DNA from: a phage
Reading direction: 5' to 3' (one strand)
Sequence record: PZ402305.1
DNA length: 64,000 nt
Shown here: piece by piece, positions 7,065 through 62,613 of the stretch
How the letters are laid out: each line of letters starts with the position of its first letter
How positions within the stretch are numbered: the first letter of the stretch is position 1
Notes under the pieces: generated by a model
Told to the model about the DNA's origin: nothing
Database searches by the model: none
The model's input: the letters and a program-made list of their open reading frames with translations, nothing else
Position numbers and translations under genes: made by a program

Positions 7065-7795
7065 AGATGTTTGTATAATGGATGACATAACAGATAGCCA
7101 ATGAGGAGATTGAAATGTCAAATATGAAAACTGTATCCTTGTATTTAGCTAACACGGATCGTGTGCACACCCTTGCTAATGCAAGTCGTGTACTCGTGCA
7201 GTTCCGAAACTTTGCACCGTCCGTTGTGACAGGCAGTGAAACGTGTGTTATCGATTTCATTAACGAATACTTCCGAGGGAATCCGGTTGGTCGTTATTTC
7301 ATTAAGGGTCTGAAGGATGCATAATATGAAACGCATGAAAATTCGTATTGAGAATGATGGTGGTTATAAAGGATTGGCACATGCAAAATTTCCACTTGTG
7401 CTGGAAGCTACGGTGGAATACAGTGGGCTTGCTCATGTGCGATTCTCGAAGATGATGGAAGTGCAGGAATGGTTTTGGGACGAGATAGATGCACGAGAAG
7501 GGGAAGATTATGTTTTCTTTCCTCACGAATATGAAATTGTTTATTAAAGGTTGTGTGCAATGATCACACCACAACAGAATGAAGCAGCAATGGATCTTCT
7601 TGACAGTTTGTATTTCGATAATTGGTACTCTGAATGTGAATGGATGAATATGCAAACTCTGAAAGAGAAGACAAAAGCGTTGATTACAGTAGATCAATTT
7701 CTTACAGAGACGGAAAGAATGAATTATGATATGGCATCTCGCGCACGACGCGTTTCCATTTTCAATAAAATGTTAGCATTATGGGGAGGTAGAAA

Positions 7796-8257
7796 ATGAG
7801 ACAACCATCTATACTGGAAGCGCATGTGCAATGTGTTGTAGATTATGTCAAAGAACACTCAAGTTTGTTGAATGTAACCTGTGCAGTGCAAAACGATGTA
7901 GGTATTGTCTGTGTGCAACATATCTTATCTGAAACTCGTTATGAAGTATTTCGTGCCACGTTGTTTGGATGTGATCGAGTGCATGTAAACTTCCTGGACT
8001 CCAATTATCGTTATGCTTTAGAAAATATTGATGATTATCTTCCTTGCTCTCCGACAGGATATGTAATGGTAACAGCAAACGAAGTAACACCGAGCAACAG
8101 TGAACAGGAAGCTTTGTTACGGAAGAAAATACGCCAACTGCAAGTGTTGAATGAACTGAAAGAAGAGATTGAAAAAGAACTAAAAGAAGATTTTGGTATG
8201 CTTCCAAAAGACGCTTTGAAATGGTATGATGAGTTAGGAGGAGAGAACAATGTTTAA
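7796..8257 (+). CDS. hypothetical protein (153 aa)
   Basis: Track ORF, ATGA overlap with upstream gene. Confidence 0.45.
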   Translation: MRQPSILEAHVQCVVDYVKEHSSLLNVTCAVQNDVGIVCVQHILSETRYEVFRATLFGCDRVHVNFLDSNYRYALENIDDYLPCSPTGYVMVTANEVTPSNSEQEALLRKKIRQLQVLNELKEEIEKELKEDFGMLPKDALKWYDELGGENNV

Positions 8258-8708
8258 AGAAGGTCATGTCTACCGTTTCCAGGATGAGGATTATATGCGA
8301 TTATATTCTACCTTTGATAACAGTATTGCTGCTATCATTGGAGAGAATTTTTTCGAGGTGTTGAGCACTGATGCAAATGGTAATATCTTGTCAATGGTTG
8401 TGATAGGTATGAGAGATGGTATTATCACTGCTAGTGATGGGGATCGTTACATAATCAATTCTGCTCATATAGATTATTTTGTTGACGGTGGTATTCGTGG
8501 TGGTCGTGGAAAACCACAAGAAGAACCTGTTGATACAACAAAAGAAGAGTGGTATGTTGTAATGACTGATGACACCTGTATTTCTGGATTTGAAAGTTAT
8601 GAAGAAGCTTTGAAAGAGGCAGCAGAGCATAAAATGTCTAATCCTACAGAAGAGGTTGAAGTTTATAAACGTTTGGTTGTTGCTACCATCGGCGTATCTT
8701 TTGTTTAA
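8250..8708 (+). CDS. hypothetical protein (152 aa)
   Basis: GGAGGAG RBS. Confidence 0.5.
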   Translation: MFKEGHVYRFQDEDYMRLYSTFDNSIAAIIGENFFEVLSTDANGNILSMVVIGMRDGIITASDGDRYIINSAHIDYFVDGGIRGGRGKPQEEPVDTTKEEWYVVMTDDTCISGFESYEEALKEAAEHKMSNPTEEVEVYKRLVVATIGVSFV

Positions 8709-8721
8709 AAAGGGGAATGTT

Positions 8722-9159
8722 ATGTTTAAAGTTAATGCTGTTTATTGTTTCAAAAGTAAAGCTGCCTGTGAAGCTTTCTCTATGATCTCTGATGAAAATT
8801 TCAAAATGGCAGCTTTGATTGAAGGGTCTTGTTTCCGCGTCGAGGATGTTAGTGAATCAGGGTCTGTTTGCTCATTGACTTTATTGGACAGCGGGGATAT
8901 TATTGAAGCTGGACAGTATCCGTTCAGGAGTTGGGAGATATTGTTAGCTCGCGGAGAGCGTAACTTTTTTATGTGCGTGTCTGCGGGGGAAGTTGTGAAA
9001 GAAACTAAGGATGTTTCTGTTTACAATTCTGAATTTATAAGTTATAGTGAGTATCAACATCTGGAAGGCATTGTTGGTCACTTGTTATCTCTGATTGACA
9101 TTGAATGTGACCTGCCTGAATCATTGAAAGAAGAGTTGAAAGCATTAGATCTGCTGTAA
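8722..9159 (+). CDS. hypothetical protein (145 aa)
   Basis: Internal ATG after AAGGGGAA RBS. Confidence 0.45.
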   Translation: MFKVNAVYCFKSKAACEAFSMISDENFKMAALIEGSCFRVEDVSESGSVCSLTLLDSGDIIEAGQYPFRSWEILLARGERNFFMCVSAGEVVKETKDVSVYNSEFISYSEYQHLEGIVGHLLSLIDIECDLPESLKEELKALDLL

Positions 9160-23480: not shown

Positions 23481-24281
23481 TTATTTGTTTAAGTGGTCTT
23501 CGACCATTTTAATGAAACCTTCATTGCTGAAGGCTGTTGCAGCTTTTTCTCGGTAAACAAAAACTCCACGATCTTCATAGAGAAGTGTTTCTTCGTAATT
23601 AACTCCAGGGTTAACTACAACCATTTTTGTTCCGATGTTAAGAGCAGGAAAAAGCTCCCAGTTAAAATTGATAACTTGATTAGAGCAACCCACTACAATC
23701 ACCATATCTTGAGCCGTCAAGCCGTCTAAGATGTGGTACATATCGTTATACAATGGGGCAGTCTCCCCAAAGAACACTACATTGGGCTTCACATACTTGT
23801 AATCATCTACATCGATAGCAGCATAGCCAACATCTTTGATGATTCTATTGTCTACGATCACTTCAGGCAGGAAGCCGTGAACATGTAGAACATCTTCATG
23901 AACAACACCCGCTTGTTCCAGAAGATCATCTACGTTTGTCGTGATGTTGATAACACGATCACAGCCGTACTCTTGGAACCACTCTGCGATCTTGCAATGC
24001 GCAGCGTTAGGAGACACACTATCCATCTCTACGCGACGTTTATTGTAGAAGTCATGAGTTTTACGGTAGAGGTTGTATCCCTCTGCATCTAATCCACCAA
24101 CAGTGCCAGGAACACACTGTTCTTGCTGGTAGCCAGCACGGAAATTGAAAATATCGCACACTTCAGAAAGGTCGTATTCATCCCACAAAGCTTTCCCACT
24201 ATCTGTATCAGTGCGGAAAGTACGTACACCGCTATCGGCGCTTAGACCCGCGCCGCTGATCACTATTAATCGTCTTGGCAT
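23481..24281 (-). CDS. Sir2-family protein (NAD-dependent deacylase / ADP-ribosyltransferase-like), no Zn ribbon
   Basis: GAGLSADSGVRTFR, TTNVDDLLEQAG, HVHG, PNVVFFGE, VVGCS; no CxxC pairs seen. Confidence 0.7.
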   Translation of the reverse strand: MPRRLIVISGAGLSADSGVRTFRTDTDSGKALWDEYDLSEVCDIFNFRAGYQQEQCVPGTVGGLDAEGYNLYRKTHDFYNKRRVEMDSVSPNAAHCKIAEWFQEYGCDRVINITTNVDDLLEQAGVVHEDVLHVHGFLPEVIVDNRIIKDVGYAAIDVDDYKYVKPNVVFFGETAPLYNDMYHILDGLTAQDMVIVVGCSNQVINFNWELFPALNIGTKMVVVNPGVNYEETLLYEDRGVFVYREKAATAFSNEGFIKMVEDHLNK

Positions 24282-51233: not shown

Positions 51234-51959
51234 TTACTTGTTAATAATACCTGCAATATTAGGTTTGACAAAGGTCGATGGTTTCATGATCTTACCTTTA
51301 TCATCAAAGAACACATACACTTTCTGTTTTTCATTATAAACAGCATGAACACCAGTGTATGCCCCTTCTGGACGATTGGCATTTCGTTCTTCAATTGCAG
51401 CGCATTCTTGTGCAATGGCTGAATCGATATCCGAAGTTTTCCAAGTTTTCAGCAACTGTTGTTTAGTTGGATACTTGGAATCATTACTTTTCAATACCTC
51501 TTTAATAACTTTCTTTTCTGGATATTTTGAACGGATTAGAGTGTCACGAGACATACGCATAATACCAGCAGCCATTAGTGCCATTTGAACTGGCTCTGTA
51601 AATGTTTGTTCCAAAGCATCAAAATCAGTATACACAGTTGGAGTAAAAACATCGCCTACAGCATAGTCCAAGAAATTCATCGTATGTTCTTCACCAAAGA
51701 ACATGTAAGTAAGATAACTGGATACTACAAAAATATCCGCTGCTGCATCCAAGAGTTCTACATGATCGTTTACTTTCGCGGCTGTTTCATACTCTTTAAG
51801 CTCTTCACGAACGAACCCGATTTGGGACATAAATAGCTCTTGAGTGAATTCAGGTTGTTCACCACCTCGTGCTTTGGCATTCCAATCAATTACGTGCTTT
51901 GCTGCATTTTTGAAAAATTCAGTATCGAATTTAATATCTTTAAAAAAATTCTCGATCAT
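51234..51959 (-). CDS. MazG-like nucleoside triphosphate pyrophosphohydrolase (putative)
   Basis: REELKEYE...(12 aa)...ELLD fits the ExxE-x12-ExxD signature. Confidence 0.45.
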   Translation of the reverse strand: MIENFFKDIKFDTEFFKNAAKHVIDWNAKARGGEQPEFTQELFMSQIGFVREELKEYETAAKVNDHVELLDAAADIFVVSSYLTYMFFGEEHTMNFLDYAVGDVFTPTVYTDFDALEQTFTEPVQMALMAAGIMRMSRDTLIRSKYPEKKVIKEVLKSNDSKYPTKQQLLKTWKTSDIDSAIAQECAAIEERNANRPEGAYTGVHAVYNEKQKVYVFFDDKGKIMKPSTFVKPNIAGIINK

Positions 51960-52204
51960 TATAACTCCTTATTTAAAATAGCTTTCTAGAAAGTTGCTAA
52001 TATTTACTACAGTCTCACCCATGTAAATTCCTGCGAAACCGAAAACAAACATACGTGGAATATTGAAATACCATTTATCCGCCGGAAAAGATGCCAGAAT
52101 TACAATAGCAATTGCTATCAACATCATAAGAATTGTTGCTAAAATTATCATAAAAATGCCTCCAGGTATTTTGCACAATGATAAGCTAAGAACATTTTTC
52201 CTCC

Positions 52205-53332
52205 TTATTCTGCTGGTTCCCAAGTGCCTGGGATCATTTCTCGAATACGAACACCAACAGGTTTTGTTGGAATACCTTCATCTGAAAATTCTTCATACTC
52301 TATTTCAACGAACTGATTAATCAAGGTAGAAGCATTCTCTGCTTTACGATAATTGATAGTCTCATGAGCATCTTTACGCATTAAGAATTCGACTACTTTA
52401 CCATTTTCCATCTCACCTGTCAACACTCCATCGCCATTTTTATCACTTTTTGAATTTATTACTTTAACTTCAAGCGTATGACGAGGCTTACGTTTAATAA
52501 CATCATAAGAACGTTTATCAAATTCGTAAACTCCGTGAGCATTACGATATACTACACCTTCAGCTTTCTCAAGTAAAGCTTTTTCATAGAAAGCATCAAA
52601 CTGTTCTTGGTTTTGAATATACTCTGTATGAACTACACAAATAAGCTCATCAAGACCATAATCCTCCACTACTGCCTTAAGAGCAGTAAGAACATCAACA
52701 CGTTTTTCAAACGGTAGGTCTGGAACTGGAATATCGTATACGTAATAGTTCAGCAAAGGTGTATTTGCATTATGCTTCTTCCAGGCACTGTTAATTTGTT
52801 GTAGACTAAGGACACCTAACCCAGCAAACACTTCACCATCAAGAGGATGACCAACAACTTCACTAATAAAGTTTGGAATACCTTTCCAATGAGGTGGCAG
52901 GTTATACACTTCCCCAGCTTTTGATAAACACTCCCCTTTCATGTTAATCATAGAACGTAACCCGTTCAGTTTGTATTGTGCATAGCCAGGGAACACAACC
53001 CTTTCAGGATAATCTTTATAATCCTGGCATTTCATTGGTGTAGAAGGAACATGGTTTTCAGCTTCTTCTTTTGTTTTATAATAGCCATTCTTTAACTGTT
53101 TTGTCCATTTGGCAAAAGCTTCAAGTTCAGCTTGTTCTTCTGGTGTTGTTTCATTGGAACGACCGATGTTTTTTGCTTCTGCTGTATAAGATTTTTCTGT
53201 GATTTTTCCACCTACCCTTCCATGAGCTACAGTAACAACTGCACCATCTGTATACACTGTCCACTGTTTAAGTTTTCCTTTTGAATCTTTACCATACAGC
53301 GTTTGATTTGTTTGTTGCATTAGTCCTCCCAT
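52205..53332 (-). CDS. ATP-dependent DNA ligase
   Basis: FPGYAQYKLNGLRS (motif I, compare T4 gp30 FPAFAQLKADGAR), LDGEVF, EGVVYRN, VIKRK. Confidence 0.7.
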   Translation of the reverse strand: MGGLMQQTNQTLYGKDSKGKLKQWTVYTDGAVVTVAHGRVGGKITEKSYTAEAKNIGRSNETTPEEQAELEAFAKWTKQLKNGYYKTKEEAENHVPSTPMKCQDYKDYPERVVFPGYAQYKLNGLRSMINMKGECLSKAGEVYNLPPHWKGIPNFISEVVGHPLDGEVFAGLGVLSLQQINSAWKKHNANTPLLNYYVYDIPVPDLPFEKRVDVLTALKAVVEDYGLDELICVVHTEYIQNQEQFDAFYEKALLEKAEGVVYRNAHGVYEFDKRSYDVIKRKPRHTLEVKVINSKSDKNGDGVLTGEMENGKVVEFLMRKDAHETINYRKAENASTLINQFVEIEYEEFSDEGIPTKPVGVRIREMIPGTWEPAE

Positions 53333-54058
53333 TTAAAAACTGAAATTTTCAATCTGTTACACACTTCATCCAAATCGGCGTCGAGTAACGTTGTAGATGT
53401 TGCCAACATATAATCAATGCTTGTGAAACCTTGCCCTTTGGCATAGTCAAACATATCTTCATACATATCTTCAAGATCACCGTCATCAAAAGTAGCTAGA
53501 AAATCCTCGTCCCCACTACGAACATAAAATGCAGTACTCATTCATCTTCATCCCAAGATTCAAAAACGCAGCAATCATCGGTTTCTATAATACCAACACG
53601 TCCGCAGGTATTGCAAGTGATTTTATCACCGTAGAATAAATAATTTTTATCACCCTCTGTGTTTACAGTTATGTCATTACTACCACAAGGGCAAGTCAGC
53701 CAACCAACAACAACGATATCTTTTTTCATAATCCATCCTTAATGAGTTCGTAAATCTCTTCCTGAAGAGCATCGATCTCTTCCTCCAAACGAGAGATCTC
53801 TTCTTTTAGATATACCATTTCGGATTCTTTCTCTTCTAACTCATTTTCAAATTTTACTTTATTCGCCTCATTTTCATAATGGAGTTCAGCGTAATCATCG
53901 CGCATTTGTTCAATAAGATGAATCAGAGACAAGATGTAATTATCTCCCGTTTCATCACGCCACTCTTCACCGTGGCGGAGAACGGTAATTCGTCCAGTAT
54001 CTTCATCTAAAATTGTCTCATATTTACGATCATCTGTATAAATCTGCATTATTTCTCC

Positions 54059-54463
54059 TTATTGAAGTTTAAGTGAACCACGAAGACGCTTCTCTTGCTG
54101 ATCACGAATATATTGTGGAACCTCGTGAATTGAATCATTACCGTGCCTATTTTCAACAACTAAAGAGATAACTTGATAACCAAACTCTTCAGCAAGAGTT
54201 AAATAAGGTTTAAGTTCTTTCTCTGTGGTTGAAGTGTTAGAAACAATAATCTTGTTAAGATTAGATGCCATAGCATCACGAACAATACTCTGACACCATG
54301 CGTGTGCTTTACCTACATTTTCTGGCTTCCAATCGTAAACACCACTTTCTGTGTAATGATATTGATCTGCCTCACAGATAGGCCAATAACCTTCAGAAAT
54401 AATTTCTGCTACCGTAGATTTACCAGCACCTGAAACGCCACGTAAAATGATAAGTTGTTTCAT
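54059..54463 (-). CDS. P-loop kinase (polynucleotide kinase-like)
   Basis: LIILRGVSGAGKSTVAEII Walker A; 134 aa, kinase domain only. Confidence 0.6.
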   Translation of the reverse strand: MKQLIILRGVSGAGKSTVAEIISEGYWPICEADQYHYTESGVYDWKPENVGKAHAWCQSIVRDAMASNLNKIIVSNTSTTEKELKPYLTLAEEFGYQVISLVVENRHGNDSIHEVPQYIRDQQEKRLRGSLKLQ

Positions 54464-55396
54464 TTATCCTCCAAAGAAGTTTTCGATTTTTTCACGTCGC
54501 TCTTGCTGATTTAAAGCAGCCCATTGAGTCTTCGTAAAGTTATTTCGAATCCATTCTAACAAAGCGTAATATTCTTCGTCAACAATTTGTTTGGCATTTT
54601 GTGGATTATCCCAAATCAGATCCCACTTTTTATCTCCACCGCGCATAAGAAACTTCTTAGTAAGATAGTGTGGTGATTTAATTTTTAAAAGTAAGTTGAA
54701 CGGATAGTTTGTTTCACGAACTACAAACCCTTCGTGTTTACAATGTTTAGACATTTCAACAACATCTGAAAACTTAACCATTGGATGAACTTCAGGACGC
54801 TTAAATTTGGTGACAGAAGCAATTCCATCAAGAGCACCTTCAGGTAACATAAAACTTGTCCCGTCAGGATTTTGAATTCTGGCACCAATTAAGTATGCAC
54901 CTGGTTCTTCTTCGACAATATGCGGATCAGAAGGATCACAGATTTCAAAAAGGAAAGTTGCTTTTGCACTCTCTGTCCATTTGATGAAATGTTCTATGTC
55001 ATCGCACTCTGAAACAATACGATTCTTTGCAATACTTGCAAAATCTGATTCAAGGCTTCCTGTTGTCGATACGATAAGTTGACCTTTATATACACCTACA
55101 GAGGCCATAAAACCATTTACTTTACGAACAACATCTACAAATTCATCCGCTGGTAGATCTGTGCCATTCTCAAAACGATTAAAAATCTTAGTGAAAGGCC
55201 AAATAACAACATTGTCATCAGCGTCAACAACGATTCCGCGACATTCTAGAAGACGAGAATCAATGTTCCATAGGTTATCCCAGAAAACTTTGTTCTTATA
55301 CTTAAGAACAGATAGACCAGAATACTCTCCTTCTTTATATGTTTTCTTATGAACTAAACCTTTTTCAACTAAATCGTCGCAATTAAATTTAGCCAC
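54464..55396 (-). CDS. rnlA: RNA ligase, Rnl1 (T4 RnlA) family
   Basis: RLLECRGIVVD and VRKVNGFMASV match T4 Rnl1 LPDALECRGIMFE and ILTKEDGSLVSTY. Confidence 0.75.
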   Translation of the reverse strand: MAKFNCDDLVEKGLVHKKTYKEGEYSGLSVLKYKNKVFWDNLWNIDSRLLECRGIVVDADDNVVIWPFTKIFNRFENGTDLPADEFVDVVRKVNGFMASVGVYKGQLIVSTTGSLESDFASIAKNRIVSECDDIEHFIKWTESAKATFLFEICDPSDPHIVEEEPGAYLIGARIQNPDGTSFMLPEGALDGIASVTKFKRPEVHPMVKFSDVVEMSKHCKHEGFVVRETNYPFNLLLKIKSPHYLTKKFLMRGGDKKWDLIWDNPQNAKQIVDEEYYALLEWIRNNFTKTQWAALNQQERREKIENFFGG

Positions 55397-55397
55397 A

Positions 55398-55949
55398 TTA
55401 CTCTCCTTTGATTATTTTGTGATGGTCTACAGTTACGATATCTCGTTTACTCATCATAGAAATTATCTCATCAAAATGTAAGATTTTTCCGTGTGCATCC
55501 CAACCCACATCTAACATTTTACCATAAGCTTCATCAGGGAAAGATCCGTGGGAATGCCCGTGTAGCATGATTGATCCACGACCTTGTTTATTCCAGGAGG
55601 CCATAGGGTAATGGCTTAAGACGAAGAACAGCTTCTGATATTTCACTTCGTCATAATACACCACTTCTCCATACTCTGCAAGCACTTCTCGGTGTTTGCT
55701 GTAATCATGGTTCCCAACACAATAAGTGATATCCCCTTGGAGGCGGGAAGCAATCTTACGGGTATCTTCTTCAGTCCCGAAACAGAAGTCACCCAAATGC
55801 CACATCTTGACACCTGGACTCGTAGCGCATTTATTCCATGCTTCGATCAGTGCTTCCGTCATGTGGTCCATATCTTCCCACGGTCGATATTCAGGAGCAA
55901 ACTCTCGTATACGTTTGTGCATAAAATGCAAATCACTTGTAATAAACAT
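55398..55949 (-). CDS. calcineurin-like metallophosphoesterase
   Basis: SDLHFMH, HLGDFCFG, VGNHD, LHGHSHG. Confidence 0.7.
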   Translation of the reverse strand: MFITSDLHFMHKRIREFAPEYRPWEDMDHMTEALIEAWNKCATSPGVKMWHLGDFCFGTEEDTRKIASRLQGDITYCVGNHDYSKHREVLAEYGEVVYYDEVKYQKLFFVLSHYPMASWNKQGRGSIMLHGHSHGSFPDEAYGKMLDVGWDAHGKILHFDEIISMMSKRDIVTVDHHKIIKGE

Positions 55950-57958
55950 TAGTATAATCCCTCGCTAAATAGGTCACGATCATGACCATTACGTTCGTAG
56001 TCAATCTGGTCTGCGTGTTTTGCAATAATGTATGCATCTTCACGACTCCACCAATTGTAGTATTGATCAATAAAACCTTGATTGTTTGGAAGACAATGCA
56101 CTTTATCAAGCACACCTGCTTCTTTCAATGCATTCAATTGTGCAGATAATACAGGATTTGCATGTCGAACACAAGGAATAATTAACTCTTCACCACTATT
56201 CAAAATATACTTATTTGCAGCACAGACGATAATACGTTGCGCATAATGACCCTCACCCATCCAGGTAAGAGGTTGGTAACAAATGTTGTTTTCAATACCA
56301 CTCATTGTTTCCTAATCCTCCTCTCTTAAGTTATCCTCGAAAAAACTAGTATCTGGAAGTAAAAGATCATTACTTGTGTCGAGCCAATCCTCTTCTTCTC
56401 GGTAGATAAAGTAACCTTCGTCCTCTTCTTGTTCCGACCAAACCGAATGATGCATGTTCTCTCCTTAATAGTGCACACGAATCATTTTAATACCATAACG
56501 CAGCATGGATTCTTTTGCAAGCATGAATTTATCCCCAGCGGCGGGATTAGAAGTATGCACGAAAATGGTAGGTGAACCAAAGCAAGGTTTACCAAACGCC
56601 AGAAGTTCTTCCAAGCACAGGAAAACATCATACCCATCTTGGTCAGAATCTTCGCCCAAATCGTTGTCAAAATGCCACTCATCTACAAAACGATAACCCT
56701 TCTGCACCTCATTCATGTAGCGAGAGGCAAGAAGTTCCTGTGATGTTTTAAACCAGATTGCATCTGGACAACCATAATCTTTTGGATCACGTAAATCGTC
56801 AAGCCAAATAATAGTACCCATATAACCTCCTCTAAGCTGGCATGATTAAAAAAGAACTCTCCACTTCAAAATGCCAATCATCTACAAGCCCTGATTCCCA
56901 ATCCTTCTCTTCATGGAAAGAGCAAATCCAACGGTACATACCTGGCGGTGTATTCTCAACATCTTCTGGCAACCCGTAATCCAAAGCTGTCAAACCGTTC
57001 TCTGTAAAACTAGGATGGAGATTAGGAGCTTTCAATACAGAAACCCTGCCTCCAACATCTACAGCCACAATCCACTCTGTCATGTATGGGCTGTCATATT
57101 GAGGTTCATCAGAACCTACCTCAACAGCCTCTGTGCGTAAGATGATAATAGCCTGCTCTGTGATTGGGGCTTTGACAATATACCCGTGATCCTCAAAAAG
57201 ATCGATAACCTCGAACTCATCGCCGTTTTCGACACCATAACTCTTATTCAAAGAGATAAACTTCGGGTTATCATCGTAAGCTTTAGTTACTTTAATTCTC
57301 ATTTTTCCTCCTTCACTTTAACCTCAAATTCTACAGGCTTACCCTCAATGTAAAAACAATGATACTCTGCCTTATCATCCTCATCACGAGGCCAAGTTAC
57401 CAAGGAGTTATAGCAATCTTCTGGTGCTTTGAAGATGGTTTTAGTCTCCACAGTAACATTCCCATTAAGTGTTGCCAATACCACCCACCCAGCTACAGGG
57501 ATCATAGTGCCTCCACTTTCCACGTTTTACCCTTATCAACCAAGGTCTTTGCTACAGCATACTCCTTCCCATTAACAAGGAAATAATAAACGATAAAAGA
57601 TTTCCCGATTGTTACTGTCTTAGTAACCTCTACACGTTTAACACCTTGCATGTATTTTGCCTTACCGGAATAGAGTAAAATCATTTTGCATTCCTCTTGT
57701 TGTTGATAACATCCATAGCAGTATATGGTTTATTAGTGCCATGATACTCCAGAATCATTGGAGAGCCTTCTTGCACTACTTCAAAGATACCATAAACAGA
57801 ACTTTCAGCAAATACCATTTGCTTCGTGCCTTGATCGTTTACAACGAGAGAAAACTTCTTGCCTGTCCCGTTGAGGATCTCGTATTTCTTGCCAGCAGTG
57901 AATAATCCAGAGTACCACTCATTATCTGTTGCTTTTACACACTTCAGGAAAGTCTTGA

Positions 57959-60574: not shown

Positions 60575-60646
60575 TGGCCCTGTAGCTCAATGGGAGAGCT
60601 GTCGGCTCATAACCGATAGGTAGCTGGATCGAAACCAGCCAGGGCC
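60575..60646 (+). tRNA. tRNA with CAT anticodon, tRNA-Ile2 (lysidine)-like
   Basis: Acceptor GGCCCTG/CAGGGCC, loop CTCATAA, encoded CCA; resembles bacterial tRNA-Ile2. Confidence 0.7.
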
Positions 60647-60651
60647 ACCAA

Positions 60652-60723
60652 CGTCTTTATGGTGTAATGGATAGCACAGGAGTCTTCTAAACTCTTAGTC
60701 AAGGTTCGATTCCTTGTAAAGAC
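60652..60723 (+). tRNA. tRNA-Arg (TCT)
   Basis: Acceptor GTCTTTA/TAAAGAC, loop CTTCTAA, T-loop TTCGATT, CCA. Confidence 0.7.
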
Positions 60724-60775
60724 ACCAGAACATTTTAACATGAATTAGCTCAAGTGATTTGAACCCACTACTGAT

Positions 60776-60896
60776 CATGGTGGCAGAGAATGAGGCAAGT
60801 ATGTCAGACATTATAAACAAAGGCCACGGTTATATTAGAAGACATAAATGCTCGAAGAGCACCGTTCGTGGAGAACGGGGGTTGGTGGAGTCACCA
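60776..60896 (+). ncRNA. second candidate structured RNA (about 120 nt)
   Basis: ATGGTGGC at about 60776 pairs with GTCACCAT at about 60889; track ORF 60759..60950 here is probably spurious. Confidence 0.3.
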
Positions 60897-60961
60897 TTCA
60901 TGGTAAAATGTTTTAAAAAACTATTGACAACAAACCTTATTTTATGTTAGATTATAAGTAT

Positions 60962-61049
60962 GGAAGGGCAAATCGACGTGGCGACGAAAACGGTCTTGAA
61001 AACCGCCGAGCTTGAAAGAGCCTTGGGAGTTCGACTCTCCCTCCTTCCG
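60962..61049 (+). tRNA. tRNA-Ser (TGA), type II
   Basis: Acceptor GGAAGGG/TCCTTCC, loop CTTGAAA, long variable arm, T-arm GGGAG-TTCGACT-CTCCC, G73, CCA. Confidence 0.7.
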
Positions 61050-61056
61050 CCAGATT

Positions 61057-61139
61057 GGTAGATTGGTGAAATGGTAGCCACGACAGTTTGCTAAACTGTA
61101 GTCGGAAACGGCGTGTAGGTTCGAGTCCTACATCTACCG
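61057..61139 (+). tRNA. tRNA-Ser (GCT), type II
   Basis: Acceptor GGTAGAT/ATCTACC, loop TTGCTAA, long variable arm, G73, CCA. Confidence 0.75.
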
Positions 61140-61273
61140 CCAAGTTCTTTTTAATATAGCTTACTTTAATAGAGTAAACTTTCGGCAGATGGCCCCCCAC
61201 CATCTTACCGATAACTCATAGTTAGTGGTGTGAACACTGGCTATCTTAAAAAGAATTTAAATATTAGTATTTA

Positions 61274-61358
61274 GGTGAGTTAATTCCGTAGGGGTAGCGG
61301 GGCAGACTGTAAATCTGTTATCATTGCGATTCGGGTGGTTCGACTCCATCACTCACCA
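61274..61358 (+). tRNA. tRNA-Tyr (GTA), type II
   Basis: GGTGAGT...GCAGACTGTAAATCTGT...ACTCACCACCA; close to the bacterial tRNA-Tyr pattern. Confidence 0.8.
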
Positions 61359-61367
61359 CCAAATTAA

Positions 61368-61450
61368 GATGAGTTGGCTGAATGGTTTAAGCGGCGGACT
61401 GTTAATCCGTGTTCGAAAGAACGATATAGGTTCAAATCCTATACTCATCG
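61368..61450 (+). tRNA. type II (Ser-like, G73) tRNA whose canonical fold gives anticodon GTT (Asn)
   Basis: Acceptor GATGAGT/ACTCATC, 3-bp D-stem, loop CTGTTAA between GCGGA/TCCGT, GNRA-capped variable arm. Confidence 0.45.
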
Positions 61451-61532
61451 CCAGAATTATGGACTTGTAGAGTTAAGGTAAACCCCCAGTCGCCAAGAGG
61501 CTTCTGGAATTGCAGGTATCGAATCCTGCCGA

Positions 61533-61604
61533 GTCCCAGCTTTGCTCCTATAGTATAATGGCTATTACAACGGTTTTGTAATCCGTGGATCTCTGTTCGA
61601 TTCA
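61533..61604 (+). tRNA. tRNA-Thr (TGT)
   Basis: Acceptor GCTCCTA/TGGGAGC, loop TTTGTAA, T-arm CTCTG-TTCGATT-CAGAG, CCA. Confidence 0.7.
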
Positions 61605-61931
61605 GAGTGGGAGCACCAACACAACATTAAGGGCACTGTGATTGATCGTCGTATCCTGTGCACAAGGTCTGTTCGAAAGACAGTGTTCTTAGTATTGTGT
61701 TGATCACAAAAAGAGTCACCTGAAACTTGACCGGAGTAGGGTTGGATGGGGTAAAAGAAGAAGCGGCTCTCCCATCGACAGCAACGAAGAATAATATTTG
61801 ACTTTGGTTTTGTATTATTTTAAGTTAGCTTACCGAACGTAGGGCTAGTCACCCAAAGGGATACTCGTCACTGTCCCACTCAATAAAACTATTGACAACC
61901 AATAGTAAAGTGTAGTATAGTAAAGATGTAG

Positions 61932-62002
61932 GGCGTTCTTGGTGTAGCGGTAGCATTCCGTCCTTCCAAGTCGGCGGCACGAGTTCGATCCTCGTAGAAC
62001 GC
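61932..62002 (+). tRNA. tRNA-Gly (TCC)
   Basis: Acceptor GCGTTCT/AGAACGC, loop CTTCCAA, T-arm ACGAG-TTCGATC-CTCGT; D-arm weak. Confidence 0.55.
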
Positions 62003-62103
62003 TCCAAATTATTTAATAAAGGGTTGCCAGAAAACTTTCTCTTTTACTCATGGTTTTCTCCTTCTCTCACACCTCTTCTGGTTGCCCTTCATTAAATGAT
62101 TTA

Positions 62104-62176
62104 TTGGTTTGTAGTGTAGTTAGGTAGCACACGACACTTTGACTGTCGTAGGTTTGGTTCAAATCCAGACAGACCA
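62104..62176 (+). tRNA. tRNA-Gln (TTG)
   Basis: U1:A72 and G73 (Gln identity), stem CGACA/TGTCG with loop CTTTGAC, CCA. Confidence 0.7.
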
Positions 62177-62184
62177 GCCATATA

Positions 62185-62258
62185 ACGGAATTTAGCTCAG
62201 TTTGGTAGAGTGTACGCTTTGGGAGCGTATTGTCGCAGGTTCGAATCCTGCAATTCCG
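62185..62258 (+). tRNA. tRNA-Pro (TGG)
   Basis: Acceptor CGGAATT/AATTCCG, loop TTTGGGA, T-arm GCAGG-TTCGAAT-CCTGC, A73, CCA. Confidence 0.75.
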
Positions 62259-62267
62259 ACCAATTAA

Positions 62268-62338
62268 ATGTTTCGTAGTTCAATGGTAGAACCCACGACT
62301 GATAATCGTGAGACACAAGTTCGATTCTTGTCGAAACA
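62268..62338 (+). tRNA. tRNA-Ile (GAT)
   Basis: Stem CACGA/TCGTG with loop CTGATAA; T-arm ACAAG-TTCGATT-CTTGT; CCA. Confidence 0.65.
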
Positions 62339-62419
62339 ACCAGTTTCCCGTTAGACTTACAGGATAAGAGTTCCACAGCTTATTGTGATGCTGGTTCGAA
62401 TCCAGCACGGGATACCTAA

Positions 62420-62495
62420 TAGCGGGATAGAGGAGTCTGGTCGTCCTCGCCAGTTTCATATGCTGGAGATCATTGGTTCAAATCCAATTCCCGCC
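62420..62495 (+). tRNA. tRNA-Met (CAT), initiator or elongator undetermined
   Basis: D-stem GAGG/CCTC, stem CCAGT/GCTGG with loop TTCATAT, T-arm ATTGG-TTCAAAT-CCAAT, 1:72 mismatch, CCA. Confidence 0.5.
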
Positions 62496-62613
62496 TCCAA
62501 ATATCGCTTGCCAGCGGTATCTTTGAAGACCTTGCCTGGTTCCTTCTAAGATGGAGGGGTGCGACTCCTTAACGCACAATTATAATAAAGCATTTCAAAT
62601 TAACAGTATTTAT

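Follow-up and report, generated by a model that had tools for sequence, protein, structure and literature searches.

A probable heal-and-seal RNA repair module encoded by separate kinase, ligase and metallophosphoesterase genes in a phAPEC8-like phage

Defences that cleave tRNA or other RNA, including PrrC, RloC, PARIS, retrons, Cas13 and Schlafens, are now seen as common in bacteria, and to our knowledge the T4 enzymes Pnkp (PseT) and Rnl1 (gp63) are essentially the only phage RNA-repair counter-measure to have been studied experimentally. Comparable activities occur elsewhere in other arrangements. Pnkp of Clostridium thermocellum (CthPnkp) carries a kinase, a metallophosphoesterase and a ligase as domains of one protein, and Trl1 of fungi and plants joins a ligase, a kinase and a 2H cyclic phosphodiesterase, the last of which leaves a 2'-phosphate requiring Tpt1. 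Here we analyse 64,000 nucleotides of phage DNA (sequence record PZ402305.1; hereafter the window, to which all unprefixed coordinates refer) in which three contiguous minus-strand genes at 54059-55949 encode a predicted P-loop kinase, an RNA ligase and a calcineurin-like metallophosphoesterase (MPE). We consider it likely that the three genes work as one heal-and-seal module for RNA repair and are the functional counterpart of Pnkp plus Rnl1 in T4. The source is a Phapecoctavirus, that is, a phAPEC8-like E. coli myovirus of the Stephanstirmvirinae; the 3.9-kb region around the cassette is 98.5% identical to OZ035771 and has matches in 122 phage records.

The system is not new in concept: kinase, MPE and ligase form a known RNA-repair syntax, and this phage neighbourhood, 'prototyped by Escherichia phage V5 and Proteus phage Mydo', has been predicted by Iyer, Burroughs, Anantharaman & Aravind (2022, Viruses 14:1977, section 3.7.3, Fig. 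5f; PMC9503650). That study proposed NAD-dependent clean-up of 2',3'-cyclic phosphate ends by a neighbourhood that includes cREC ('cyclic-phosphate processing receiver'), MazG and a sirtuin, and termed the phosphoesterase 'occasional'. What we add is a quantified core of MPE and kinase, gene fusions, the exchange of one ligase for another, the assignment of the MPE to a branch of its superfamily, and a deletion in phage phAPEC8 that serves as a control. We found no experimental study of any cassette member in the literature; a PAK_P3 transcriptome paper concerns host RtcB rather than phage genes, and a Schlafen paper only cites the T4 literature. Some GenBank depositors already use the terms 'RNA ligase' or 'RNA repair' for such genes.

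The cassette consists of the following genes.

54059-54463, minus strand: kinase, 134 amino acids, a stand-alone P-loop protein placed in the polynucleotide-kinase clade; proposed 5'-OH RNA kinase.
54464-55396, minus strand: RNA ligase, 310 amino acids, GTG start, predicted to be ATP-dependent, Rnl1 clade; proposed sealing enzyme.
55398-55949, minus strand: MPE, 183 amino acids, predicted to be binuclear, aq_1665-like branch; proposed 2',3'-cyclic phosphodiesterase and 3'-phosphatase.

The three open reading frames (ORFs) lie exactly at the positions and on the strand given in the initial annotation of this DNA, and their packing appears operon-like, as if arranged for co-expression. The stop codon of the ORF preceding the MPE gene (55949-56305) overlaps the MPE start (TAATG); the MPE stop codon and the GTG of the ligase are one base apart, with AAGGAG ahead of the GTG; and the TAA of the ligase directly abuts the ATG of the kinase, with GGAGGA within the 3' end of the ligase gene. 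Further upstream, the gaps along the series formed by the cREC gene, an ORF of 47 amino acids and the 55949-56305 ORF are just 6-9 nucleotides. A scan for sigma-70 promoters and terminators returned 36 candidates against 29.4 +/- 5.3 in shuffled sequence, which is not over background, and we claim none.

The case for a shared function is made chiefly by the company these genes keep. We searched 80 viral contigs that encode relatives of the ligase with profile hidden Markov models; together with seven annotated loci, they fell into 19 ligase clusters at 50% identity. A kinase gene stands within 3 kb of the ligase in 16 of these 19 clusters and both a kinase and an MPE gene in 13. The MPE itself, 'occasional' in PMC9503650, accompanies the ligase in 15/19 of the lineages sampled here, oftener than Sir2, cREC or MazG, each of which is found near the ligase in 2/19. 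The conserved core is made up of kinase and MPE, to which particular lineages add Sir2, cREC or MazG. The genes stand in at least five different orders (MPE-ligase-kinase, kinase-ligase-MPE, ligase-MPE-kinase, ligase-kinase-MPE and, in phage rV5, a divergent layout), and this constancy of membership under a varying order points to a linkage that is functional and not merely historical. In Vibrio phage VnaP the triad stands alone, with the portal gene on one side and the terminase gene on the other.

As a guard against ascertainment bias, we assembled reciprocal sets of loci seeded with the kinase or the MPE (IMG/VR holds at least 500 relatives of each), taking flanks of 6 kb. Neighbours were counted as follows.

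Kinase-seeded loci (n = 80): MPE in 48; Rnl1-type ligase in 32; PF09414-type ligase in 20; any RNA ligase in 49; DNA ligase in 14.
MPE-seeded loci (n = 80): kinase in 32; Rnl1-type ligase in 35; PF09414-type ligase in 7; any RNA ligase in 41; DNA ligase in 14.

Of the 48 kinase-seeded loci that also hold an MPE, 39 encode an RNA ligase of one type or the other, as do 27 of the 32 MPE-seeded loci that also hold a kinase. The ligase is not always the same one. Among the loci that pair MPE with kinase and have no Rnl1-type ligase (n = 32, both sets pooled), the commonest neighbour is a ligase of the PF09414 family (14/32), which carries an N-terminal PHA02142 OB fold (for example at 7950-9110 of locus L170). 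Two RNA ligases that can stand in for each other next to one and the same pair argue strongly, from context, that the pair makes RNA ends ready for sealing. Additionally, one lineage encodes kinase-ligase fusion proteins of about 430 amino acids, in which Pfam AAA_33 and RNA_lig_T4_1 fall in a single polypeptide; these fusions hint at a physical complex. The linkage in shuffled orders, the fusions and the replacement by a second RNA ligase family all bear out the suggestion of the initial annotation that the genes form one RNA-repair unit. The pattern also raises a broader idea, to which we give somewhat less than even credence: that the MPE and the 134-amino-acid mini-kinase are a ligase-agnostic RNA end-healing pair, a 'split Pnkp' previously unrecognised and widespread in phages, whose products are sealed by ligases of either the Rnl1 type or the OB-fold/PF09414 type.

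In the mechanism that we propose, host ribotoxins such as anticodon nucleases and toxin RNases would cut tRNA or other RNA to leave a 2',3'-cyclic phosphate and a 5'-OH. The MPE, perhaps with help from cREC, would open and take off the phosphate, whether cyclic or 3', and so leave a 3'-OH, and the kinase, resembling polynucleotide kinases, would transfer a phosphate from a nucleoside triphosphate to the 5'-OH. The Rnl1-type ligase, adenylylated on Lys92, would then pass AMP to the 5'-phosphate and seal the break.

The ligase has a sole Pfam match, to RNA_lig_T4_1 (PF09511; 5e-15). A single-sequence search of the PDB found no solved relative at E ≤ 1, and a family profile was needed: built from 36 diverse homologues, it matches T4 Rnl1 (2c5u) at 8e-17 over the nucleotidyltransferase domain, compared with 2.6e-4 for Rnl3 (2vug). 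The lysine nucleophile of motif I (KxxG) lies in K92-V-N-G95, which is invariant in the 36 homologues and aligns with 'tKeDG' of T4 Rnl1; motifs III, IV and V (F150-E151, E222-G223 and K238-x-K240) are likewise invariant and align with FEf, EGyv and fKiKs of the T4 enzyme. An AlphaFold2 model of the ligase, with a predicted local distance difference test score (pLDDT) of 93, was compared with solved structures by Foldseek, which ranked T4 Rnl1 and fungal Trl1-LIG first (~1e-13 to 1e-11), followed by Rnl3 (1e-9), Rnl2 (1e-6) and Rnl5 (6e-6). The ligase is thus nearer to Rnl1 than to the Rnl2, Rnl3 or Rnl5 families. The 'clear T4 RnlA motifs' of the initial annotation are those of the nucleotidyltransferase domain, and for that domain the description holds; it does not extend to the C-terminal domain, which has no sequence similarity to that of T4. 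The profile alignment ends at T4 Rnl1 residue 249, the C-terminal tRNA-binding domain of T4 Rnl1 spanning about 255-374. The last 65 residues of the phage ligase (242-307 in the model) form six short helices, so that the region is all-helical like its T4 counterpart and about half as long.

Many GenBank records give this ligase family a 'tail fibre attachment' label in the manner of T4 gp63. We set this label aside, as it is inherited from T4 and comes without evidence in these phages.

The kinase matches Pfam AAA_33 (4e-10) and PHROG 505, polynucleotide kinase (1.7e-8), and an hhalign comparison with genuine T4 Pnkp (probability 97.4%, E 1.2e-11) covers T4 residues 1-148, the whole kinase domain; these matches agree with its earlier description as a stand-alone P-loop kinase. 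Its P-loop, GxxGxGK[ST], reads G9-V-S-G-A-G-K15-S16, with G14 and K15 invariant and K15/S16 aligned to the same residues of T4, and D33, invariant in 34 homologues, is paired by hhalign with the T4 general base D35. R106, in the sequence 'ENRHG', lies at most two positions from the T4 lid residue R126, the loop lengths differing, and is conserved in close relatives. Against the PDB, the family profile gives full-length matches to PSTK and the CthPnkp kinase and partial ones to Pnkp1, T4 Pnk and mammalian PNKP. The AlphaFold2 model (pLDDT 92) has the CthPnkp kinase and T4 Pnk as its top PDB folds, with a template modelling (TM) score of 0.79. Foldseek ranks CthPnkp, T4 Pnk, Pnkp1, Mucorales kinases and PSTK above PFK2, gluconokinase and adenylate kinase, and the profile search agrees in placing polynucleotide kinases above small-molecule kinases. 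The phosphatase of T4 Pnkp is of the HAD type; Pfam and hhalign found no HAD (DxDxT) 3'-phosphatase domain in the phage kinase, which ends at residue 134. Kinase and phosphatase are therefore separate proteins here, as had been noted, and the phosphatase differs from that of T4 in fold.

The third protein had been described as a calcineurin-like metallophosphoesterase, and its match to Pfam Metallophos (2e-5, over the family cut-off) and its five metal motifs sustain that description; it also matches PHROG 547 (9e-56). The motifs DxH, GD, GNH[D/E], H and GHxH are invariant in 35 homologues and correspond to D6-x-H8, G53-D54, G79-N80-H81, H113 and G131-H132-x-H134. In the PDB its family profile finds aq_1665 (1xm7) at 2e-23 and GpdQ at 1e-4, among others, and by sequence the protein appears to fall outside the Pnkp/lambda-phosphatase branch, in one that is uncharacterised. 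One homologue of the MPE is mis-annotated in the public record: QGX20_gp035 of the Otagovirus phiPsa300 (L006, 2702-3271), labelled 'phosphohydrolase (MutT/nudix family)', matches it in phmmer at 1e-29.

The window also holds a second metallophosphoesterase gene, located by homology to gp150 of phage ukendt (L089, 30133-30876) at about 30.1-30.9 kb on the minus strand and labelled 'NinI-like Ser/Thr phosphatase'. By this label the protein would be of the lambda-phosphatase type, the same branch as the bacterial Pnkp phosphatase, and could be an alternative or additional end-healing enzyme.

Compared with T4, the same three chemical steps are expected, and the ligase shares an Rnl1-type nucleotidyltransferase domain. 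The phage kinase aligns with the entire T4 Pnk kinase domain, including the conserved P-loop lysine and catalytic aspartate; unlike T4 Pnkp it has no HAD domain, and the role of phosphatase would fall to the binuclear metallophosphoesterase, a protein of its own. At 64 residues less than T4 Rnl1, the ligase has a shorter C-terminal helical domain with no sequence similarity to that of T4, and the repair genes are contiguous here. With the bacterial Pnkp/Hen1 and Pnkp1-Rnl-Hen1 systems of C. thermocellum and Capnocytophaga gingivalis the cassette shares the triad of P-loop kinase, calcineurin-type MPE and ATP-dependent ligase, and the best match of the kinase model is the CthPnkp kinase domain, Pnkp1 matching as well. 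Here, however, the three are separate proteins, the MPE is aq_1665-like rather than lambda-phosphatase-like, and the ligase belongs to the Rnl1 clade rather than being of the Pnkp type. A scan of 17 ORFs for a methyltransferase domain such as that of Hen1, 16 of them at 50.8-58.3 kb, found none; no search for Hen1 was made in the remainder of the window. Trl1 (ligase-kinase-cyclic phosphodiesterase) has in common with the cassette an Rnl1-clade ligase and a PNK-type kinase. The ligase model fits Trl1-LIG with TM scores of 0.60-0.68 and the kinase fits Mucorales Trl1-type kinases, and the phage fusions echo Trl1 in joining the two. The order in these fusions, kinase-ligase, is the reverse of that in Trl1, and the third component here is a metallophosphoesterase.

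Around the cassette lie genes that connect it to the published rV5 neighbourhood, along with others that bear on its interpretation.

55949-56305, minus strand: T4_Y16D-family ORF (PF26092), 118 amino acids; PHROG 839, function unknown.
56465-56821, minus strand: cREC, 118 amino acids; Pfam PF20274 at 1.6e-13; probable accessory component.
51234-51959, minus strand: MazG-like nucleotide pyrophosphohydrolase; Pfam PRA-PH at 2.7e-6, PHROG 671.
52205-53332, minus strand: ATP-dependent DNA ligase; Pfam DNA_ligase_A_M at 1e-9, PHROG 114 at 4e-74.
23481-24281, minus strand: Sir2 (sirtuin), orthologue of rV5 gp080; phmmer 2.8e-81 against rV5 Sir2, Pfam SIR2 at 2.3e-19.
60576-62499, plus strand: cluster of 10 tRNA genes (ARAGORN).

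The initial annotation passed over the cREC and MazG-like genes, both part of the published rV5 neighbourhood. Two ORFs upstream of the MPE, cREC has invariant REC-like residues (D8, D9, D52, N53, D54, T90, S91 and K98) and is orthologous to rV5 gp079, which directly follows the rV5 ligase; cREC was defined and its role predicted in PMC7824862, and the role is also treated in PMC9503650. The two phages have in common orthologous T4-like ligases (47% identity to rV5 gp078), kinase, phosphoesterase, cREC (gp079), MazG-like protein and Sir2, and here the ligase, cREC, kinase and MazG genes all fall inside 51234-56821. They differ in layout. In the window MPE, ligase and kinase are co-directional and tightly coupled, whereas in rV5 the MPE and kinase genes are divergent from the ligase; three genes intervene here between cREC and ligase; and Sir2, which in rV5 adjoins ligase and cREC, is 30 kb from the cassette, among unrelated genes at the end of a minus-strand block. 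The T4_Y16D-family ORF has invariant IVCAAN, RH, QGFID and C-terminal LFSExLY motifs, and neither a PDB search with its family profile nor NCBIfam gave a match. We considered it as a fourth component and rejected it, as its distant homologues are not consistently beside repair genes.

Nature has supplied a deletion of the cassette. In the type phage phAPEC8, blastn against the window and inspection of the junction revealed loss of 2,297 bp between 7-bp direct repeats.

53466-53472: TATCTTC, left copy, deletion boundary.
55763-55769: TATCTTC, right copy, within the MPE gene.

The repeat at the phAPEC8 junction lies at 7353-7359 of locus L088. Along with kinase and ligase, the deletion takes out two small genes and two-thirds of the MPE, and it leaves cREC, the T4_Y16D-family ORF and the DNA ligase. 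In the resulting chimera, gp137, MPE residues 1-62 run on in frame into the C-terminus of a 73-amino-acid ORF (53320-53541). This junction is found in phAPEC8 alone among 118 related records, and the cassette is kept in about 116/118 related genomes; near-universal retention together with the loss in phAPEC8 indicates that the cassette is ancestral yet dispensable for growth. Among the close relatives that carry it are ukendt and SKA64. A gene set that is retained but dispensable fits an accessory counter-defence function.

Three other readings of the cassette deserve consideration. One of them, published for rV5 (PMC9503650), follows the logic of Trl1: the MPE and/or cREC would open the cyclic phosphate so that a 2'-phosphate is left, kinase and ligase would join the ends, the sirtuin would strip the 2'-phosphate through ADP-ribosyl transfer in the manner of KptA/Tpt1, and the by-product would be handled by MazG, Nudix or cREC. 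The window does hold a ligase, cREC, kinase, MazG, MPE and an rV5-type Sir2, and in rV5 and KB57-like phages the genes for ligase, cREC and Sir2 lie side by side. The ligase model, moreover, fits fungal Trl1-LIG, a 2'-phosphate-dependent ligase, as well as it fits T4 Rnl1. Set against this are the position of Sir2 in our phage, 30 kb away with unrelated genes around it, and the rarity of Sir2 and cREC (2/19 clusters each) next to the near-universal kinase and MPE, from which it follows that most phages run the core without a sirtuin. A binuclear MPE can also in principle take the phosphate off outright, making 2'-phosphate chemistry unnecessary. The route is plausible for rV5 but not general, and as an account of the present cassette we regard it as unlikely.

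The same genes might instead serve DNA or small molecules. If kinase and MPE acted in the manner of PNKP, cleaning 5'-OH/3'-phosphate DNA nicks for a nearby DNA ligase, the Rnl1-type ligase would have a separate role. T4 Pnk and CthPnkp act on both DNA and RNA, a DNA ligase gene lies 1.1 kb downstream of the kinase in the same array, a DNA ligase is encoded within about 8 kb in 44/80 ligase-seeded loci, and the MPE has a weak NCBIfam match (0.0044, far below the cut-off) to the ligase-associated PdeM. Yet in the reciprocal sets a DNA ligase accompanies kinase or MPE in 14/80 loci, compared with 49/80 and 41/80 for an RNA ligase; the fusions join the kinase to an RNA ligase, never to a DNA ligase; several lineages have their DNA ligase on the opposite strand, 4-7 kb off; and phAPEC8 lost the triad and kept its DNA ligase. 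We judge DNA end-processing improbable. A role in nucleotide or signal metabolism seems to us improbable as well: here the kinase would act on a nucleoside, nucleotide or other small molecule and the MPE would be a nucleotidase or cyclic-nucleotide phosphodiesterase, in salvage or in destroying a host immune signal, with the ligase merely co-located. Depositors have labelled such kinases 'ATPase', 'dephospho-CoA kinase' and 'nucleotide kinase'; the kinase has weak matches, confined to the P-loop, to nicotinamide riboside, gluconate and adenylate kinases; loci of Pakpuna-/Otago-like phages adjoin PRPP-synthetase-like and NAMPT-like NAD-salvage genes; and the nearest relatives of the MPE are uncharacterised or diesterases such as GpdQ. 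However, PSTK, CthPnkp and T4 Pnk, which act on polynucleotides or tRNA and match most or all of the kinase, outrank small-molecule kinases by profile, hhalign and fold alike, and co-location alone hardly accounts for a kinase fused to an RNA ligase or for the exchange of one RNA ligase family for another beside the same pair.

Returning to the heal-and-seal module, several observations weigh against it or against parts of it. By family-profile alignment, no T4-type tRNA-binding C-terminal domain is recognisable in the ligase, which leaves tRNA specificity unsupported. The equivalent of T4 Pnkp Arg38, which contacts substrate, is not conserved in the kinase: the residue at this position is His36 in our phage, and homologues have Phe, Tyr or His. 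Nor is the lid arginine invariant, being absent from some distant family members. The lambda-phosphatase/CthPnkp branch is the one known to act on RNA 2',3' ends; the MPE family profile retrieved no lambda-phosphatase or CthPnkp phosphatase chain from the PDB at E ≤ 1, and the nearest solved relative is an uncharacterised Aquifex 'hypothetical protein', aq_1665. No phosphoesterase is recognisable near the kinase-ligase fusion genes (L028), and 31/80 kinase-seeded and 39/80 MPE-seeded loci have no RNA ligase within 6 kb, many such loci being truncated. More generally, what we observe is gene structure, family membership, folds, intact catalytic motifs, linkage, fusions, ligase replacement and dispensability, and it is from these that we infer every enzymatic activity, the preference for RNA over DNA, the tRNA target and the counter-defence role.

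The tRNA genes of the phage offer a further point of contact with tRNA-cleaving defences. The cluster starts at 60576 on the opposite strand, 4.6 kb from the cassette, close to the earlier estimate of 4.5 kb, and encodes Met, Arg-TCT, Ser-GCT, Asn, Thr-TGT, Gly-TCC, Gln-TTG, Pro-TGG, Ile-GAT and Met. ARAGORN found no tRNA-Lys among these 10 window tRNAs. As tRNA-Lys is the classic target of PrrC and PARIS, replacement by phage tRNAs could not cover an attack of that type, and repair could.

We also note several features of related loci and of the wider window. In Pakpuna-/Otago-like Pseudomonas phages the triad has PRPP-synthetase-like and NAMPT-like genes as neighbours, and a gene for an HD phosphohydrolase is present too (L004, 4846-7672; L006, 5410-7861; L251, 1-645). 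The first two resemble a phage NAD+-reconstitution pair, and the combination of triad, NAMPT-/PRPP-synthetase-like and HD genes suggests an anti-defence gene island. Elsewhere in the window, homology to ukendt (L089) places a 190-amino-acid ORF labelled 'histidyl tRNA synthetase' at about 31.2-31.8 kb and a block of four genes for dTDP-rhamnose biosynthesis at about 36.4-39.7 kb, both within one array on the minus strand. Positions 1-23000, on the plus strand, hold a row of about 65 small ORFs of unknown function, several of them paralogues that share a single family, annotated in ukendt as VOG7392.

The module appears to be a far more widespread alternative to the T4 enzymes. It occurs in large virulent phages that infect Escherichia, Salmonella, Klebsiella, Pseudomonas, Vibrio and Acinetobacter, and several of these phages are in therapeutic use. 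It offers three small enzymes, predicted to be soluble, with intact active sites, and phAPEC8 is a natural clean deletion mutant to set beside near-identical phages that have the cassette, on hosts that carry defences. If the proposed role is right, it would give a function to an uncharacterised branch of metallophosphoesterases whose sole solved relative is a 'hypothetical protein'. Should the broader idea of a split Pnkp also hold, RNA 2',3'-phosphoesterases would gain a new family in this branch, and phages would have in it a common answer to the defence nucleases that generate cyclic phosphates.

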